A stretch of DNA of 64,000 nucleotides, taken from Myxococcales bacterium (GTDB lineage Bacteria; Myxococcota_A; Polyangia; Nannocystales; Nannocystaceae). Below, one piece after another: positions 52,562-60,347 of the stretch (position 1 is the first letter of the stretch; the number at the start of each line of letters is the position of its first letter). A program made the translations under genes and the position numbers. Under the pieces are notes generated by a model. That model made no database searches, was not told the DNA's origin, and worked only from the letters and a program-made list of their open reading frames with translations. The stretch is taken from the NCBI GenBank assembly GCA_020633335.1, contig JACKDU010000002.1:122730-186729 (forward strand), written 5' to 3'.

Positions 52562-54337
52562 ATGGACGACTTCCTCCAGACCTTCAACGACGTCCTGAGC
52601 GCGATCAACGGCGTCATCTTCCACGACGTCGTCCTCTTCACGGTCCTCGGCGTCGGCGTCCTCTTCACGATCTGGAGCGGCTTCTGCCAGTACCACGCGC
52701 TCTCGCACGGGGTCTCGGTGATCCGCGGGCGCTACGACGACAAGGACGACCCGGGGGCGATCAACCACTTCCAGGCGCTCTCGGCCGCCCTCTCGGCGAC
52801 CGTCGGCCTCGGCAACATCGGCGGCGTCGCGGTAGCGATCGCCCTCGGCGGCCCCGGGGCGATCTTCTGGATGTGGGTGGTCGGGATCTTCGGCATGGCC
52901 CTCAAGACCACCGAGGTCACCCAGTCGATGCTCTTCCGGAACACCGACGACGCCGACGAGCCCCACGGCGGGCCGATGTGGGTGGTCGAGGAGGGCCTCG
53001 CCAAGCGGAGCCCGCGGCTGCGGCCGCTCGGGCGGGCGATCGGCGTGCTCTTCTGCATCACCCTGCTGATCGCGACGATCACCGGCGGCAACATGTTCCA
53101 GGCCTGGAACGTCGCGGTCGTCACCGAGGAGGGGCTCGGGATCCCGCAGCCGCTGGTCGGCGCGATCCAGGCGGTCCTGGTCGGCGCGGTGATCCTCGGG
53201 GGGATCAAGCGGATCGGCGCGGTCGCCGGGCGGATCGTCCCCTTCATGTGCCTGGTCTACCTGATCGCGTCGTTCTACGTGCTCGGGGTCCACATCGCCG
53301 AGATCCCCGCGATGCTCCGGCTCATCGTCGTCTCGGGGCTCAACCCGGCCGAGGCCGGCGGCGCCTTCGTCGGCGCCTCCTTCGGCCTCGCCTTCCTCTG
53401 GGGGATGAAGCGCGCGCTCTTCTCGAGCGAGGTCGGCCAGGGCTCGTCGCCGATCGCCCACTCGGCGGCGAAGACCGACGAGCCGGTCCGTGAGGGCGTG
53501 GTCGCCGGCCTCGAGCCCTTCATCGACACGATCGTCGTCGCCACCCTGACCTCGCTGGTGATCATGGCCAGCGGCGCCTGGAACCGCGGCGGCGAGGCCA
53601 CGTTCGCCGAGGCCCCGGCCTTCGTCGCCGCCGAGGAGGCCGCCGACAAGGGCCCGCGCTGGATCCCTGGCGAGGTCGCGCTCCCCCGCAAGAGCGCCGA
53701 GGCGGAGGCGATCAGCGGGGCCTGGAAGGAGGGCGACGGGGTCTTCCTGATCGCCCGCTTCGGCGAGGTCGACGAGGCCACCGGCACCGATCTCCAGCGG
53801 GTCAACGGCACCGTCGTCCGCGACGCGGCCGACCGCGACGCCTGGGCGATCCGCTGGTCGCCGGTCGCCACCGCGGCCGCGCCGGTCGCGGTCGGCCCGG
53901 ACATCTACCGCGACTACGTCGGCGCCGCCCTCACCAGCCACGCCTTCGACCGCGTCACCCCGGGCCTCGGCAAGTGGCTGGTCTTGTTCTCGTCGTGGCT
54001 CTTCGCGGTGTCGACGATGATCTCGTGGTCGTACTACGGCGAGCAGGGCGTCGTGTACATGGGCGGCCAGCGCTGGGTGATCCCCTACAAGATCATCTAC
54101 TGCGCGGCGATCGTCCTGGCGACCGTCGGCCTCGTGACCACCGACGCCGAGCTCGACAACCTCACGACCCTCGGCACCGGCGTGATGCTGGTGGTCAACA
54201 TCCCGATCATGCTCCTCTTCGGCGCGTCGACGATGAAGGCCTACCGGCGCTACTTCGCGCGGCTGCGGGCCGGCGACTTCGAGAAGCACAAGGCGCCGCC
54301 GATCACCGAGGTGATCGAGGGGCACGACCACGAGTAG
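52562..54337 (+). CDS. alanine/glycine:cation symporter (AGCS family)
   Basis: INHFQALSAALSATVGLGNIGGVAVAIALGGPGAIFWMWVVGIFGMALKTTE is the AGCS signature region; multiple TM segments. Confidence 0.85.
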   Translation: MDDFLQTFNDVLSAINGVIFHDVVLFTVLGVGVLFTIWSGFCQYHALSHGVSVIRGRYDDKDDPGAINHFQALSAALSATVGLGNIGGVAVAIALGGPGAIFWMWVVGIFGMALKTTEVTQSMLFRNTDDADEPHGGPMWVVEEGLAKRSPRLRPLGRAIGVLFCITLLIATITGGNMFQAWNVAVVTEEGLGIPQPLVGAIQAVLVGAVILGGIKRIGAVAGRIVPFMCLVYLIASFYVLGVHIAEIPAMLRLIVVSGLNPAEAGGAFVGASFGLAFLWGMKRALFSSEVGQGSSPIAHSAAKTDEPVREGVVAGLEPFIDTIVVATLTSLVIMASGAWNRGGEATFAEAPAFVAAEEAADKGPRWIPGEVALPRKSAEAEAISGAWKEGDGVFLIARFGEVDEATGTDLQRVNGTVVRDAADRDAWAIRWSPVATAAAPVAVGPDIYRDYVGAALTSHAFDRVTPGLGKWLVLFSSWLFAVSTMISWSYYGEQGVVYMGGQRWVIPYKIIYCAAIVLATVGLVTTDAELDNLTTLGTGVMLVVNIPIMLLFGASTMKAYRRYFARLRAGDFEKHKAPPITEVIEGHDHE

Positions 54338-54349
54338 GCGGGGCGACGA

Positions 54350-55587
54350 TGCTCAAGCTCAAGCGCCTCAAGATCCTCCACTACCGGAACGTCAAGCCGG
54401 GCTGCGAGCTGAGCTTCGACGACGGCCTCAACCTGGTGCTGGGCAAGAACGCGTCCGGCAAGACGACCCTCCTGGCCCTGCTCTCGGCGGTCTGTCGGTC
54501 GGTCTTCGAAGGGATCAAGCACGAGGAATTCGAGCTCGAGTACACCCTCTCGAACGACGCATTCTCGGTCGAAGCGAAGGTCTCGCACCGGCAGGTACCG
54601 ACGACGGACGACGAGCAGCAGATCGGCGCAGGGCCGCTCTGGGATGATCACTACGAGACAACCTTCACCGACCTGCTCACAGGAGAGGAGCTGTCGATCG
54701 ACAGCGAGCGGGCGAGTCGACACCGACGTGTCGACCTCATCATGGAGTGGTCCTTCATCGCCGCGCTCCTCTCGAACCGGAAGGAGTCCTGGACAGACCT
54801 GCGGAACGAGCTCTTTCGCAGCTTCGGGTCGGCGTTCCGATTTGATGAGTCGCTCGACTGCTTCGCCTCGATGACCGGTCGTCAGAGCGTCCTGGGTGGA
54901 CCCGAGTCGCCGCCCTTGGCCCGGAAGGGCTACACCTCACGGCGAGGGCTCCACGTCACCGATGGCGAGTTCATTCCTCCATCCCTCTCAAATGCACTGG
55001 GACATGTGTTCCGGCTCGCAGATCCTGACGCGGACCTCTCGGTCGACGACGCAGCCAAGAACTTCACCGACAAGGCCGCGACGCTCATGGATGTTCAGAA
55101 CGTGGTTGTGAAGCCGAGAGTCACCGAGCGTCGGATCACGTCCCACGAACGCTCGATCTCGGCAGAGGGCTTCACGTTCGAGGTCACCCGCCCTGACGGA
55201 ACCACGATCCATCACGACCGCCTGAGCTACGGCCAGAAGCGCCTGCTCTCGTTCCTCTACTACCTCGAATGCAACCCATCCGTCGTGATCGCCGACGAGC
55301 TCGTCAACGGCCTCCACCACCGATGGATCGACGCCTGCATGAAGGAGATCGGCTCGCGGCAGGCGTTCCTCACGAGCCAGAACCCGCTCCTCTTCGACTA
55401 CGCTGACTTCGAGTCCGTGGAGCAGGTCATGCACCGCTTCATCGTCTGCGACCTCGAGATGGTCGATGACCGCGAGATGCTGGTCTGGCGCAACATGAGT
55501 CACGGCGACGCGGAGGTCTTCTTTCGAGCCTATGAGGCCGGGATCGAGCACGTCGGTGACATCCTGATCACCCGGGGCCTCTGGTGA
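54350..55587 (+). CDS. ABC-type (OLD/AAA_21/AAA_15-like) ATPase, candidate defence-system ATPase
   Basis: N-terminus MLKLKRLKILHYRNV...LNLVLGKNASGKTTLL (Walker A). LSYGQKRLLSF is an ABC signature-like motif. VVIADELVNGLHH is Walker B plus an H-loop. GC about 60% versus about 72% in flanks, with AT-ending codons (estimated by eye). Confidence 0.75.
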
Positions 55588-56402
55588 GCGAGCCCCCTTC
55601 AAAGATCTCGCTCCTGCTCCTGACGGAAGACAGCGGCAAGGAGGCGGAGTCTGCGCTCCGCGCCTTTCTCGACCGCCTGCTCCGTCGAGTCGTCGCAGGC
55701 GCCAGCGTCGATGCTGGGAGCTGGGATCCCGCCGAAGGCGATGTCCGCGCCGTTGTGCGTGGCAACGCGTGGAAGAGCCCGGCACGGAGGGAGCTCGTTC
55801 AGCTTCGTCAGTACATCGCGGCCAAGCTCCGTAGCCCCGGCGGCTTCGTCTTCTTCCATTTTGACGGCGACCGACCCTACCGCGACCGTGAAGCCAGCGA
55901 GAACATCAAGAAATTCAACGAGCTGATCCAGAAGCACGTCCGGGACATCCTCGGAGGTCCTCCGCCGATGCGCCGACCTCGGAGACACGCTTCGGCGCCC
56001 CCAGTACCGACGGCTCCCCTCATGGAGAAGCTGATCCCGATCGTCCCCTTCTACAGCGTTGAGGCCTGGTACTTCCAGAACACGGAGCGGGCGCTCGCCC
56101 ACTGCCTGGCCAATCCGAAGTGCCGCGGGGGATGCCAGGCCACGCTCGCTACCTGGACGGCGGACCGAGGTGCGCTCGACGAGCTCATCAAGCCGAAAGA
56201 AGCGCTCTGCTTCCGCGCGGGGCACAACCTCGACCTCGCACGCACCTCCTATCCGCTCGACAGCGTCCTCGCCGCGCGGAAGTCACTCCATGATCTCGTC
56301 GCTCAGCTCTCGGCATGTGCACCGCTGCGCGAGGCGCTCGAAGCCACGCGCCCCCCCTGGTGGCACGAGCCCGAGCCCCCCAGGGGTCAAGCGGACACAT
56401 GA
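55584..56402 (+). CDS. partner protein with TOPRIM-like acidic motifs; candidate nuclease component
   Basis: The GTG start overlaps the ATPase stop by 4 nt (GTGA). LLLLTEDSGKEAE places a Glu after a hydrophobic strand, as in the TOPRIM E. FVFFHFDGDRPY provides the DxD. Lower GC, like its partner. Confidence 0.55.
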   Translation: MSEPPSKISLLLLTEDSGKEAESALRAFLDRLLRRVVAGASVDAGSWDPAEGDVRAVVRGNAWKSPARRELVQLRQYIAAKLRSPGGFVFFHFDGDRPYRDREASENIKKFNELIQKHVRDILGGPPPMRRPRRHASAPPVPTAPLMEKLIPIVPFYSVEAWYFQNTERALAHCLANPKCRGGCQATLATWTADRGALDELIKPKEALCFRAGHNLDLARTSYPLDSVLAARKSLHDLVAQLSACAPLREALEATRPPWWHEPEPPRGQADT

Positions 56403-56509
56403 CGTCGGCGCGCTTCCGCGCGCCGCTTGACCCGCCGCCGCGCGCCGACGCCCCGCCCACGCGTCACCGTTGACCTCGCCCCCGGGCCTCGATACTCGGA
56501 GGTCCGCGC

Positions 56510-59503
56510 GTGGCGTCGACGTTCACAGGCAGCGGCGATCCCGAGGACTCGCTGGCCATCACCCAGGAGGCGTCGCTGCATACGCCGACCTTCGGGGTCG
56601 ACGACACCCTCGCCTCGCCGCGCGAGGTGACCCTCCCCGGCGGCCTCCGTGACGAGCGCGACGACCTCGCGCGGGGCGATCTGATCGGCCGCTACGTGAT
56701 CCTCGATCGCCTCGGCGCCGGCGGCATGGGGGTGGTCTACGCCGCCTTCGATCCCGAGCTCGATCGCAAGGTGGCGATCAAGCTCCTCCACTCGAGCGCC
56801 GCCGCCGAGAGCGAGGGCAGCCGCATGCGCCTCCTCCGCGAGGCCCAGGCGCTCGCCAAGCTCAGCCACCCCAACGTCGTCACGATCCACGACGTCGGCA
56901 CCTTCGGCGATCACGTGTGGCTGGCGATGGAGCACGTCGAGGGCCGCACCCTCGGGGCCTGGCGGCGCGCGCGGGCGCGGCGCTGGCAGGAGATCCTGGC
57001 GGTCGTCCTCGACGCCGGCCGCGGGCTCGCGGCGGCCCACGCCGCCGGCCTGATCCACCGCGACGTCAAGCCGGAGAACATCATGGTCGGCGTCGACGGC
57101 CGGGTGCGGATGATGGACTTCGGCCTCGCCCGGGCGACCGGCGGCGACGACGAGCCCCCAAGGACCCTGCCGGAGCGGGCGCTCGCCACCAGCGGCGACC
57201 TCGCGGTCTTGTCGCTGCGGATCACCCAGGCGGGCTCGATGATGGGGACCCCGGCCTACATGTCCCCGGAGAGCCTGAGCGGGGCCGAGGCCGACGCCCG
57301 CTCCGACCTCTTCGGCTTCTGCGCGACCCTCTGGGAGGCGCTCTACGGCGAGACACCCTTCGCCGGCCGGACCCTCAGCGAGCTCACCACCAACGTCGAG
57401 GGCGGCAAGCTACGGCCGATCCCGCGGGGCTCGACGGTCCCCGGCTGGGTGCGCCGCCTCTGCGAGCGAGGCCTCGCCGCCGACCCCGGGCAGCGGCCAC
57501 CCTCGATCGACGCGCTCCTCGCCGACTTCGCCCGCGGGCAGGGCCGGAGCCGGCGCTGGCGCTGGATCGCCGTCGCCGGCGCGCTGGCGCTGGCGAGCGG
57601 CGCCGGGCTCGGCTGGCGGGCGATCGAGCTCGAGGCCAAGCGCGCCCGCTGCGAGGCCGCCGGCGCGGCGATCGACGAGGCCTGGAACGACGCCGCCCGC
57701 GAGCGCCTCCGCCGCGGGCTCCTCGACTCCGGGGCGCCGATCGCCGAGGACGTCAACCGGCGCATGCACCCCTGGCTCGACGCCTGGACCGCCTCGTGGC
57801 GCGAGACCCGGAGCGTCCTCTGCCGGGCCGCCGAGATCGACGGCGCCTGGTCGCCCGACCTCTACGAGCGCGCCCAGAGCTGCCTCGACGAGCAGCGCGA
57901 CGGCCTCGTCGGCCTCCTCGAGGGGCTCGCCGACGCCCCGCCCGGATCGGTGTGGTACGCGGTGCCGATCGCCGCCGGCCTCCCGCGGGTCGACGCCTGC
58001 ACTGAGCGCGCGCTCCTCGAGCGCCGACCGCCGCCGCCCCCCGAGGCGGTGCGCGATCAGGTCGCCGAGCTCCGACGCAGGCTCATGGTCGTCATCGGCC
58101 TCCACGAGGCCGGCCGCTTCACCGAGGCGATGACCCGGGCCGAGGCGCTCCTCGCCGACGTCCAGGCGCTCGGCGATCCGCCCCTCGAGATCCAGGTGCG
58201 GGTCCAGGTCGGCGGCCTCGCCTCCTCCCTCGGCGACCTCGAGCGGGCCGAGGCGATGCTCACCGACGTCTTCGTCGACGCCGGCGCCCTCGGGATGGAC
58301 GAGGTCGCGGTCGACGCGGCCAACCGCCTGATCTTCACCGTCGGCTACCGGGCCGCCCGCCACCGCGAGGGCCTCCTCTGGAGCCGCGCCGCCGAGATGC
58401 TGATCCGCCGCCTCGGCCAGGCCAAGCGCTCGCGCGGGGCGACGGTCCTCAATTCGGTCGCCAACATCCACTACGCGCTCGGCGACTACGAGGCCTCGCA
58501 GCGCCTCTTCGAGGAGGCGCTGGCGATCAACGAGGCGGAGCTCGGCGAGTCCCACCCGCTCGTCGCCGACAACCTCACCAACCTCGCCGACGTCTTCTAC
58601 GCCCGCGGCGAGCTCGACCGCGCCGAGGCGACCTACGCCCGCAGCCTGGCGATCAGCGCCGAGACCCTCGGCCCCCTCCACCCCAACCGCGGCTACGCGC
58701 TCAACAACCTGGCGACCGTCCACTACAGCCGCGGCGAGCTCGAGGAGGCGCGGCCCCTCCTCGAGCAGGCGCTGACGATCTTCGAGGCGACCTACGGCCC
58801 CGACAACCCCGAGCTCGCCAACACCCTGAACAACCTCGCCAACATCGACCGGGTGAGCGGCGCCCTCGACCGCGCGCGCGCCCGCTACGGCCGCGCGGTC
58901 GCCCTCATCGAGGGGAGCCTCGGCGGCGAGCACCCGGCGCTGGCGACCCCCCTCGACAACCTCGGCACCGTCCACTGGCTGGCCGGCGAGCCCGACGAGG
59001 CGGCGCCCCTCTTCGCGCGGGCGCTGCAGATCCGCGAGGCCGCTCTCGGGCCCGAGCACCCCGAGGTCGCGACCTCGCTCCTCCACCTCGCCGAGGTCCA
59101 GCTCGCCGACGGCGACCTCGCGGCGGCCTCCGCCGGCTTCGCCCGCGCGCGGGCGATCCGCGAGGCCGCCCTCGGGGCCGAGAACGCCGGCGTCGGCGAG
59201 GCGCTCGCCGGCCTCGCCGAGGTCGCGCTCGCCGAGGGCCGGGTCGTCGACGCCCGCGCCGGCCTCGAGGACGCGCTCACCCGCCTGAAGGGCGACGCGC
59301 CGTCGACGATCGCGGCCGCCGCCCGCGCCCGCTTCGCCCTCGCCCGCGCGCTCTCGCGGCCGCCGGCGGCCGATCCGACCCGCGCCCGCGCGCTCGCCGA
59401 GGCCGCCCGCGACGCCCTCCGGGAGAGCCCGAGCGAGCGCCGCGCGCTCCTCGTGATCGAGGCCTGGCTCCGCGACCAGGGCGGGTCCGCGGCCAAGGGC
59501 TAG
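56510..59503 (+). CDS. Ser/Thr protein kinase with C-terminal TPR array
   Basis: GAGGMGVVY, VAIKLL, HRDVKPENIMV, DFGLA, TPAYMSPE, TM segment WIAVAGALALA, then about 10 TPR-like repeats (LNNLA...Y..G). Confidence 0.85.
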   Translation: MASTFTGSGDPEDSLAITQEASLHTPTFGVDDTLASPREVTLPGGLRDERDDLARGDLIGRYVILDRLGAGGMGVVYAAFDPELDRKVAIKLLHSSAAAESEGSRMRLLREAQALAKLSHPNVVTIHDVGTFGDHVWLAMEHVEGRTLGAWRRARARRWQEILAVVLDAGRGLAAAHAAGLIHRDVKPENIMVGVDGRVRMMDFGLARATGGDDEPPRTLPERALATSGDLAVLSLRITQAGSMMGTPAYMSPESLSGAEADARSDLFGFCATLWEALYGETPFAGRTLSELTTNVEGGKLRPIPRGSTVPGWVRRLCERGLAADPGQRPPSIDALLADFARGQGRSRRWRWIAVAGALALASGAGLGWRAIELEAKRARCEAAGAAIDEAWNDAARERLRRGLLDSGAPIAEDVNRRMHPWLDAWTASWRETRSVLCRAAEIDGAWSPDLYERAQSCLDEQRDGLVGLLEGLADAPPGSVWYAVPIAAGLPRVDACTERALLERRPPPPPEAVRDQVAELRRRLMVVIGLHEAGRFTEAMTRAEALLADVQALGDPPLEIQVRVQVGGLASSLGDLERAEAMLTDVFVDAGALGMDEVAVDAANRLIFTVGYRAARHREGLLWSRAAEMLIRRLGQAKRSRGATVLNSVANIHYALGDYEASQRLFEEALAINEAELGESHPLVADNLTNLADVFYARGELDRAEATYARSLAISAETLGPLHPNRGYALNNLATVHYSRGELEEARPLLEQALTIFEATYGPDNPELANTLNNLANIDRVSGALDRARARYGRAVALIEGSLGGEHPALATPLDNLGTVHWLAGEPDEAAPLFARALQIREAALGPEHPEVATSLLHLAEVQLADGDLAAASAGFARARAIREAALGAENAGVGEALAGLAEVALAEGRVVDARAGLEDALTRLKGDAPSTIAAAARARFALARALSRPPAADPTRARALAEAARDALRESPSERRALLVIEAWLRDQGGSAAKG

Positions 59504-59549
59504 ACCTGTCCATCAAGACAGGTATTAAAAACATGTCCCTTCGGACATG
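59504..59549. repeat. two palindromes ACCTGTC-CATCAA-GACAGGT and CATGTCC-CTTC-GGACATG flanking an AT-rich TATTAAAAA; likely bidirectional terminator
   Basis: Read directly in the 55-bp gap between convergent stops 59503 and 59559. On the minus-strand transcript the second hairpin is followed by UUUUUAAU. Confidence 0.65.
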
Positions 59550-59558
59550 ATCGTGTGA

Positions 59559-60347
59559 TCACTCGATCGTCGCCGGCGCGTCGTCGACGGGATCGCCAGG
59601 GAGCCCAGACCAGAGGCGGACCGCCAGCCCGGCCGCCGGCGGCCGCCGGAGCGCGAGGGCGACCGGGTGGGCCTCCCCGAGATCGAAGCGGCGGAAGCTC
59701 CAGCTCGCGGGGTCATCCTCGAGATCGGGCGCGAAGTCGATCCGGATCGCCGCCCCGGGCGCGCCGACCTCGAACCAGAAGCGATCGAGCCCGAGGGAGA
59801 TGCCGATCCCGCGGGCCTTGATGTAGGCCTCCTTGAGCGTCCAGTAGTCGAAGAAGCGGCGGGCGAGCGCCTCCCCCTCCAGCCCCTCGAGGGCCGCGAC
59901 CTCCGGGGCCGCGAAGAAGTGATCGGCGATCCCCCGGAGGTTGCCCCGGCGCCTGCGGGCCTCGACGTCGACGCCGATCTCGCCGCGCGCGAGGGCGAGG
60001 ACCGCCCGCCCGTCGGTGTGCGAGAGGTTGAAGCGGAGCCCCTCGAGGCCGTGGGCGGCCGCCTGCGCCGCCTCGATCTCCGGGCGCCCGTGCGCGCCGA
60101 TCGAGAAGCGCCAGGCCGCCGGCTCGATCACCGGCGCGTAGCGGGTGAGCGTCCCCCGCACCAGCGCCCGGGCGATCAGGAAGGCGTGGCGGTGACGCTC
60201 GAAGATGAAGCGCTGGCGCCGGGCCTCCTCGTCGGGGCTGAGCCAGGCGGCGTAGCGGGCGAGGCGCTCGGCGGCGGTCAGCCCCTCCGGATCGACCTCC
60301 CAGACGTGGATCTCCCCCTCCCCGAGCTCGATCGCCGACTCCTGCAT
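59559..60347 (-). CDS. Sfp-type 4'-phosphopantetheinyl transferase
   Basis: FNLSHT, GVDVE, WTLKEAYIKARG. Confidence 0.8.
   Translation of the reverse strand: MQESAIELGEGEIHVWEVDPEGLTAAERLARYAAWLSPDEEARRQRFIFERHRHAFLIARALVRGTLTRYAPVIEPAAWRFSIGAHGRPEIEAAQAAAHGLEGLRFNLSHTDGRAVLALARGEIGVDVEARRRRGNLRGIADHFFAAPEVAALEGLEGEALARRFFDYWTLKEAYIKARGIGISLGLDRFWFEVGAPGAAIRIDFAPDLEDDPASWSFRRFDLGEAHPVALALRRPPAAGLAVRLWSGLPGDPVDDAPATIE

Follow-up and report, generated by a model that had tools for sequence, protein, structure and literature searches.

A split ATPase and TOPRIM-like gene pair centred on Myxococcota: a candidate OLD-like defence module

ABC ATPases paired with TOPRIM proteins are an established defence architecture. 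In PARIS, the ATPase AriA assembles with the TOPRIM nuclease AriB, and activation results in tRNA cleavage (PMC11464382). HEC-01 (Hma-embedded candidate 01) and HEC-04 are further ABC ATPase and TOPRIM pairs, and defence by HEC-04 requires both the ATPase and the TOPRIM sites (bioRxiv 10.1101/2024.01.29.577857, Payne et al. 2024). DUF4276/Mad4 and RloB are TOPRIM effectors (PMC12065111), and in OLD proteins the ATPase domain is thought to control how the nuclease region gains access to its substrate (PMC6755086). We describe a gene pair of this general kind in a 64,000-nucleotide stretch of DNA from a Myxococcales bacterium of the family Nannocystaceae (GenBank contig JACKDU010000002.1). This whole stretch is the window, and positions are counted from its first letter. 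Myxobacteria have very large genomes and phages of their own, and their immune repertoire is poorly charted; a literature search found no paper on the family of this pair in myxobacteria. The new element is a Myxococcota-centred family that lies outside current annotation models, a finding that is useful, and not very surprising, for the specialist.

The pair consists of gene A, an ABC-type ATPase of the AAA_21/AAA_15 class, and gene B, with a predicted divergent TOPRIM-like domain followed by a C-terminal helical domain. We consider it reasonably probable that the two genes form a horizontally acquired, split OLD-like ATPase–nuclease defence module. The observations that carry this reading are the structure of the two genes, the class of the ATPase, the fact that A and B are strictly paired and co-vary, the intact conserved residues of catalytic type, the foreign composition of the pair, its place in a variable insertion slot, and the near-restriction of its family to Myxococcota. 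By analogy with described systems, gene B would act as a nuclease, A and B would form a physical complex in which the ATPase regulates the nuclease, and the module would have an anti-phage role.

Gene A occupies positions 54349 to 55587 of the forward strand (412 amino acids; ATG at 54349, TGA at 55585–55587), and gene B, with 272 amino acids, runs on the same strand from a GTG start at 55584 to position 56402. Stop and start overlap in the tetranucleotide GTGA (55584–55587, forward strand), an arrangement of translational coupling; at 48 other loci, too, the ATPase open reading frame (ORF) closes with an in-frame GTGA. An earlier note on this DNA had described two ORFs joined by this overlap, and they are confirmed on the forward strand; its end coordinate (56402) stands, and its start (54350) is replaced by the ATG at 54349. 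The motifs that it listed are all present in the translations: LKRLKILHYRNV, GKNASGKTT, LSYGQKRLLSF, and VVIADELVNGLHH in gene A, and LLLL followed by TEDSGKEAE and FVFFHF followed by DGD in gene B. A common start, M-x-KLKRL, is found in all gene A homologues.

Gene A passes the Pfam gathering thresholds of AAA_21 (expectation value, E, of 6.9e-14, full length) and AAA_15 (1.7e-8), which bears out an earlier assignment to the ABC/OLD-type ATPases of this class, and it belongs to a family of more than 800 clusters. It is a compact ABC ATPase head, Rad50/SMC/AriA-like, without a coiled coil; in the predicted model the inserts are beta-rich, and a long helical or coiled-coil bundle is absent. The motifs of the ATPase site, all on the forward strand, were compared across 47 family members. 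Walker A is GKNASGKT (residues 32–39, positions 54442–54465), where G32, N34, G37, K38, and T39 are invariant. The ABC signature LSYGQKR (residues 292–298, 55222–55242) has L292, S293, G295, K297, and R298 invariant, and in the Walker B motif and D-loop, VVIADELVNGLHH (residues 312–324, 55282–55320), the same holds for A315, D316, E317, V319, N320, G321, and H323. A family-specific motif, RFDESL (residues 164–169, 54838–54855), combines invariant D166, E167, and L169 with R164 and F165 conserved in at least 90% of members; most genome members carry it in the form RFDE[SAG]L.

The segment FLTSQNP (residues 340–346, 55366–55386, forward strand) has S343, Q344, N345, and P346 invariant among the 47 members, and it is read as the switch (H-loop) region because it aligns to the end of the AAA_21 profile. 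His is usual at the switch-loop position of ABC ATPases; at position 344 of this family, 48 of 49 genome members have Gln, and a single one (ASHDP) has His. The Gln switch suggests, speculatively, that nucleotide binding, and not fast hydrolysis, gates the system.

Specific family models in Pfam, PADLOC, and NCBIfam give a uniform picture: gene A passes none of them. Its PADLOC matches (AriA, mad3, AbiLi, PtuA, and GajA) each cover one end of the protein only, that of Walker A or that of the signature and Walker B; among the 47 gene A relatives, AriA and mad3 match every one, and HEC-01A matches eight. The top two PADLOC models have 304 and 373–374 positions, and Pfam AAA_21 and AAA_15 have 304 and 374; since these lengths are essentially the same, we take the AriA matches of gene A as generic. 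Among NCBIfam equivalogs, recF (TIGR00611; cut-off 172 bits) gives gene A 31.4 bits, and MAD3 (NF047739; cut-off 420) gives it 30.5.

Gene B is far more divergent. It has no match in Pfam, PADLOC, NCBIfam, or the sequences of the Protein Data Bank (PDB), even at E values of 1–10, and a profile of its family searched against PDB sequences returned chance matches only (RhoGAP, E 0.56). The earlier note could place this partner in no named family, and the absence of any matching model agrees with it. The family itself is large. A word-index search recovered 27 gene B clusters, and an exhaustive profile search of 1.84 billion proteins recovered 673 representatives at 50% identity, 414 of them below 1e-30; among the best 150 of the 673 matches, all relatives are full-length, at about 250 amino acids.

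The fold of gene B was approached through a predicted structure. The AlphaFold model has a mean local confidence (pLDDT) of 94.2 and a predicted template modelling (TM) score of 0.90, and its layout comprises a strand at residues 9–14, helices, a strand at 87–92, helices, a strand at 150–153, and a helical C-terminal half. Both structure searches with this model placed the C-terminal region of Class 2 OLD proteins (TOPRIM plus helical domain) at the top, weakly; the Foldseek top match is the C-terminal region of the Xanthomonas OLD protein (E 0.22, probability 0.69, target-normalised TM score 0.48).

Profile scans and conservation counts were made on 62 genome-derived members of the gene B family (alignment A2). 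DUF4276 is the only Pfam family matched by more than two of the 62, with seven members and a best E of 0.0021; the alignments are collinear (protein residues 51–202 against profile positions 21–154 of 192) and span the DxD and SxE-W regions of the gene B family. HEC-01B is the only recurrent PADLOC match (6 of 62, best 8e-4). As a control, an NCBIfam scan of the same members gave singleton noise, no family being matched by more than one of them.

The conserved residues of gene B lie behind the strands of the model. The two-metal site of the Burkholderia OLD protein is formed by the Toprim residue E400, D455xD457, T506xE508, where the helical domain begins, and K562 (PMC6755086). In gene B, T14-E15-D16 (55623–55631, forward strand) follows model strand 9–14, supplies the proposed TOPRIM Glu, and has E15 and D16 in 62 of 62 members. 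H92-F-D94-G-D96 (55857–55871, forward strand), the proposed metal-binding DxD motif, follows model strand 87–92, and H92, D94, and D96 are likewise present in all 62. After strand 150–153 comes PFYSVEAWYFQN (residues 155–166, 56046–56081, forward strand), with P155, E160, W162, and Q165 in 62 of 62 and S158 in 60 of 62; this stretch is aligned to DUF4276 profile positions of about 90–115, and S158-x-E160 is proposed as the counterpart of OLD T506-x-E508 (metal B). In the helical domain, K205 (56196–56198, forward strand), invariant in alignment A1 and present in 52 of 62 members in A2, is proposed, by sequence order, as the counterpart of the catalytic K562. The series E15/D16, D94xD96, S158xE160, and K205 thus has the same order and placement as the OLD catalytic set. 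The invariant H92 (55857–55859) before DGD, and W162 and Q165 (56067–56080) after SxE, have no counterpart in the Burkholderia set; these residues may define the substrate or metal chemistry of the family.

An alternative account of gene B gives it a different Rossmann-like fold of three layers, such as a MID-like one that binds nucleotides or nucleic-acid ends, and makes it the adaptor or sensor of the ATPase. Although gene B passes no family model, as this account would have it, we regard the account as improbable: the MID matches span about 115 residues only, whereas the OLD match spans 166 and includes the helical domain; Foldseek independently ranks OLD first; strands 1, 3, and 4 are each followed directly by the invariant acidic residues, as the TOPRIM order has it; and the matches to DUF4276 and HEC-01B are recurrent and collinear, with a clean NCBIfam control. 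From weak but concordant lines, we conclude that gene B probably belongs to the TOPRIM superfamily as a very divergent member, that its helical domain is OLD-like, and that DUF4276 and HEC-01B are its nearest families. Judged by threshold scores, it falls in no named family. The earlier description of the partner as TOPRIM-like is upheld by the structure searches, the recurrent weak profile matches, and the OLD-like order of residues; the same evidence speaks against the outcome that would have undone it, a partner without a TOPRIM or nuclease fold.

The two genes travel together. At every locus with upstream sequence, a gene A homologue lies directly upstream of gene B; this covers about 78 loci, drawn from genomes, metagenome-assembled genomes (MAGs), and metagenomes, in about 50 contexts. 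Pairwise identities of A and B correlate (r = 0.82, 1,176 pairs). Around the pairs no conserved third gene was found; kinases, sensor kinases, and ABC exporters recur on varying sides and strands. The largest departure from co-variation is seen in three Nannocystaceae loci (L073:6001-8051, L077:3388-5397, and L078:2179-4188), where the pair lies between Peptidase_S49 and Peptidase_M16 genes; here the ATPase is about 55% identical to that of the window and the partner only 30–33%, which suggests faster effector evolution or partner exchange. A longer gene B homologue (315 amino acids; L064:501-1445), in a MAG labelled Gammaproteobacteria, shows no ATPase match in the 500 nucleotides available upstream, and it could be a solo or re-partnered effector.

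Some of these features would also suit a toxin–antitoxin-like addiction module with no anti-phage role, in which B is a toxic nuclease that A neutralises and loss of the module kills the cell. The operon is tight and translationally coupled, A and B co-vary, and the pair has foreign composition and variable sites; AriA of PARIS has been termed an ‘antitoxin’ by PDB depositors, and HEC-01 has no defence phenotype. Addiction modules thrive on plasmids and phages, whereas we found no copies of this pair on either. Moreover, the known ABC ATPase and TOPRIM pairs with toxin–antitoxin behaviour are defence systems too (PMC11464382). Because such known pairs are both, the toxin–antitoxin and defence readings overlap; an addiction module and nothing else is, in our judgement, unlikely.

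The split OLD-like defence module that we favour is also marked by its composition. The pair is the lowest-GC (guanine plus cytosine) 2-kb stretch of the 64-kb window: its GC content is 64.1%, against 74.6% and 75.5% in the 5-kb flanks, and elsewhere in the window the minimum is 69.2% and the mean 73.6% (standard deviation 2.1). GC at third codon positions (GC3) is 0.85 in gene A and 0.79 in gene B, compared with 0.98–0.99 in neighbouring genes. The contrast had been put earlier at about 60% against about 72%; it is real, and both figures were about 3–4 points low. At 68 of 68 loci, the GC of the pair is below that of its flanks, by 8 points on average. Since both the GC contrast and the arrangement recur at all 68 comparable loci, they are more than chance. 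A low-GC donor is not visible for the pair, its family being essentially confined to high-GC Myxococcota, without plasmid or phage copies; codon-limited expression is one possibility for the persistent dip.

In a search of one genome per species (185,579 species), 68 loci were found, nearly all in Myxococcota, and the hosts include Sorangium, Archangium, Corallococcus, Cystobacter, Nannocystis, Polyangium, and Kofleriaceae. Several genomes have two or three copies of the pair, mutually only 31–43% identical, and clustering of 49 loci at 45% partner identity gives 20 groups. Flanks are common to pairs only within a genus, which yields the approximately 50 contexts. The MAGs behind loci L013, L028, L041, and L069 bear the labels Pseudomonadota, Planctomycetota, Enterobacterales, or Alphaproteobacteria, and the contigs are high-GC; these could be mis-binned myxobacterial DNA or real transfer beyond the phylum.

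Three relatives (L081, L082, and L083), whose AgcS proteins are 76–80% identical to that of the window, have the same backbone and no pair in the slot. The order of the backbone is Aminotran_4, PilZ, DciA, a 336-amino-acid protein, AgcS, the slot, PPTase, and ferrochelatase. DNA collinearity with these relatives ends at 54283–54333, at the 3' end of AgcS, and restarts at 59617–59770, in the PPTase gene; the window-specific segment between these breaks (54338–59558, no strand) holds the pair and a Ser/Thr kinase with TPR repeats. In the first relative the slot is empty (L081:8771-9110), 340 nucleotides with a GC content of only 59%; in the second (L082:8798-9608) it contains PARG-like (PARG_cat_microb) fragments; and in the third (L083:8866-10251) it contains an unrelated ORF of 461 amino acids with no Pfam or PADLOC match. 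None of the slot cargo of the three relatives has a PADLOC match. Because relatives with the same backbone lack the pair and collinearity is broken, the pair is an insert in a variable slot and not a conserved syntenic gene. Horizontal acquisition, as the earlier note had suggested from base composition, gains support from the low GC and GC3, the slot without the pair in three relatives, and the many contexts.

These results also bear on the idea that A and B are a housekeeping or accessory pair for DNA repair or maintenance, like RecF and RecR or SbcCD, specific to the Myxococcota lineage. Its attractions are that the best NCBIfam match of gene A is recF (N-terminus only, 1.1e-7), that the pair is chromosomal only and has housekeeping neighbours including DciA, and that it is syntenic within Sorangium and within Nannocystaceae. 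Yet the recF score, 31 bits, falls far below the cut-off of 172, three close relatives share the backbone and lack the pair, and the GC of the pair is below that of the flanks at 68 of 68 loci. Some 50 contexts, and several copies in one genome that have diverged deeply, make for a patchy and diversifying pattern, unlike that of a core gene. RecR carries a HhH motif and a Cys4 zinc finger; in gene B no RecR-type Cys4 zinc-finger motif was seen, HHH_5 matches only one of 62 members, and no RecR model is matched. We therefore reject RecF/RecR identity and hold a repair pair of any kind to be a poor prospect. An ATPase that groups with housekeeping proteins in conserved synteny would have spoken against the earlier note; the relatives without the pair and the variety of contexts give the opposite picture.

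The neighbours named in the earlier note are as it described. Upstream lies a Na:Ala symporter, AgcS (PF01235, 2.4e-104), and downstream a Ser/Thr kinase with TPR repeats (997 amino acids, 56510–59503, forward strand). This kinase prompts a further alternative, a three-gene, MADS-like system with the kinase as its third component. The kinase is on the same strand, 107 nucleotides past gene B, is likewise absent from the three relatives, and matches PADLOC mad6 (1.9e-61) and PD-T4-6. Its PADLOC matches (PD-T4-6, mad6, and C3a189), however, cover the generic kinase domain only, and at no other locus is a kinase immediately downstream. Kinase density is 2.0 per 100 kb at 0–5 kb from pairs, against 1.9 at 5–10 kb, and neighbouring kinases elsewhere differ in side and strand and are only 30–37% identical. 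The GC3 of the window kinase is host-like (0.98, against 0.79–0.85 for the pair), and no methyltransferase or other MADS gene occurs among the annotated neighbours. A three-gene system is thus close to refuted, and the window kinase is not part of the module; its acquisition or duplication was probably an event separate from that of the pair.

Little else marks the boundaries of the pair. A candidate terminator hairpin 3' of gene B (56403–56450) is no better than shuffles (z = -1.05), and no promoter or terminator consensus was found. An inverted repeat around it (54316–54348 and 56446–56478; 33 nucleotides, 73% complementary) was judged a chance match in GC-rich DNA.

As a split OLD-like defence module, the pair would work as follows. 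A and B are translationally coupled, and the two proteins would form a complex in which an oligomer of the ATPase serves as sensor and regulator; under its control the nuclease would stay inactive until the nucleotide state changed or an infection cue arrived. Once released or activated, the nuclease would cut nucleic acid with its putative two-metal site (E15/D16, D94/D96, S158/E160, and K205); candidate substrates are DNA, as for OLD and Gabija, or tRNA, as for PARIS AriB. Phage replication would be stopped, probably at a cost to the cell.

Several points weigh against this reading. The anti-phage role is drawn from the homology class, the foreign composition, the variable slot, and the patchy, multi-copy, diversified distribution of the family, and HEC-01, the closest named candidate, gave no protection in Escherichia coli (bioRxiv 10.1101/2024.01.29.577857). 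Searches of 72,556 plasmids, 50,697 phages, and IMG/VR contigs found no relatives of the pair. Nor is the locus recognisable as a defence island, its neighbours being housekeeping genes, so the setting of a mobile defence island suggested earlier is not borne out; at the locus there is no integrase, transposase, or tRNA, and no Rfam match. Pair loci of Sorangium are syntenic between species, and therefore the module can be stably inherited. For gene B, the structural support for a TOPRIM fold is, taken alone, below formal significance, the DUF4276 and HEC-01B matches of the family are all sub-threshold (12–19 bits against a cut-off of 30.2), the gene B of the window itself matches neither, and the mapping of residues onto OLD follows from sequence order. 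Finally, the change of the switch His to Gln implies that ATP hydrolysis by gene A may be weak.

A bolder proposal can be made, tentatively. The pair may be the founding member of a class of split OLD-like immune systems that is restricted to Myxococcota and has so far gone unrecognised, in which a Gln-switch ATPase serves as an ATP-bound latch or sensor and not as a hydrolysis motor, and the TOPRIM effector has a site of the form H-x-D-G-D / S-x-E-x-W-x-x-Q. The genes of such a class would be held about 8 GC points below their hosts by continual transfer within the phylum, or by selection that favours poorly translated codons and so keeps a toxic nuclease at a low level. We offer this as a possible account, with more doubt than confidence.

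Standard tools would miss the module, since no model recognises its effector. Should the module prove functional, the ABC ATPase and TOPRIM defence systems would gain a new branch at family level, with 673 clusters at 50% identity; it would offer a natural Gln-switch variant for the study of nuclease gating by ABC ATPases; and it would provide an effector profile for PADLOC and DefenseFinder. If its role is not defence, it is still a large, strictly paired, and compositionally odd gene family that needs a function.

Among the described systems, the more distant can be set aside first. Septu and retron PtuAB have PtuB, an HNH nuclease, as the partner; no HNH family appears among the matches of the partner, and PtuA matches only the Walker A end of gene A. 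AbiL and RloA-RloB resemble the pair in joining an AAA_21 ATPase to a small TOPRIM-superfamily protein, and AbiLi is the third-best PADLOC match of gene A (1.8e-10); they differ in the effector, as RloB (PF13707)/AbiLii is unmatched in 62 of 62 partner members.

Class 2 OLD proteins (Burkholderia pseudomallei and Xanthomonas campestris; PDB 6NK8 and 6NJX) provide the best structural match of gene B, a TOPRIM domain plus a helical domain, and the same order of residues, E, DxD, [ST]xE, and K. They differ in being one fused ATPase–TOPRIM polypeptide, whereas the window pair consists of two ORFs with a stop codon between them. A UvrD-like helicase gene is described downstream of Class 2 OLD (PMC7049728). 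With split ORFs, a kinase downstream, and no helicase among the annotated neighbours, the pair falls outside OLD Classes 1 and 2, including Gabija GajA.

PARIS (Class 4 OLD-like) shares the split into ATPase and TOPRIM genes and is the likely working model, in which the ATPase restrains a toxic nuclease. Membership is not supported: DUF4435 (PF14491) is unmatched by gene B and by the 62 members at E values up to 10. Nor is gene A an AriA; the matching models are generic and lie at the ends of the protein, the predicted model lacks the IS1/IS2 coiled coils, and the match to AriA in the PDB (E 0.006) covers residues 281–354 only. Of the hedged label given earlier, PARIS or split-OLD-like, the second part is supported and the first is not.

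DUF4276 (PF14103; Mad4) is a TOPRIM-superfamily effector, as gene B is proposed to be, with an AAA_15/21 ABC ATPase as its partner (Mad3). A literature search on Mad3/Mad4 yielded nothing relevant. The gene B family differs in length, at about 250–270 amino acids against a 192-position model, and it does not belong to DUF4276, its best score being 18.8 bits against a gathering cut-off of 30.2, with 7 of 62 members matching at E values up to 10. The sequence evidence fits kinship at the level of the superfamily, and not membership. MADS is an eight-gene system that includes Mad3 (ATPase), Mad4 (DUF4276), Mad6 (kinase), and a methyltransferase; the low NF047739 score of gene A and the absence of MADS genes among the annotated neighbours place the pair outside it.

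HEC-01 shows the same plan, a separate ABC ATPase gene followed by a small TOPRIM protein with an OLD-like metal site, and its models reach part of the family: HEC-01B 6 of the 62 partner members (best 8e-4) and HEC-01A 8 of the 47 ATPase relatives. The two differ in that gene B has no HEC-01B match, HEC-01A is absent from the matches of gene A at E values up to 1e-6, no Hma genes lie among the annotated neighbours of the pair, and the window family is almost confined to Myxococcota; HEC-01, for its part, is without a demonstrated phenotype. With HEC-01B unmatched by gene B, HEC-01A absent from the matches of gene A at that E value, and no Hma among the annotated neighbours, we do not assign the pair to HEC-01. 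The best reading is that the pair is not PARIS but a family-level variant of the ABC ATPase and TOPRIM architecture, closest to HEC-01 and Mad3/Mad4.

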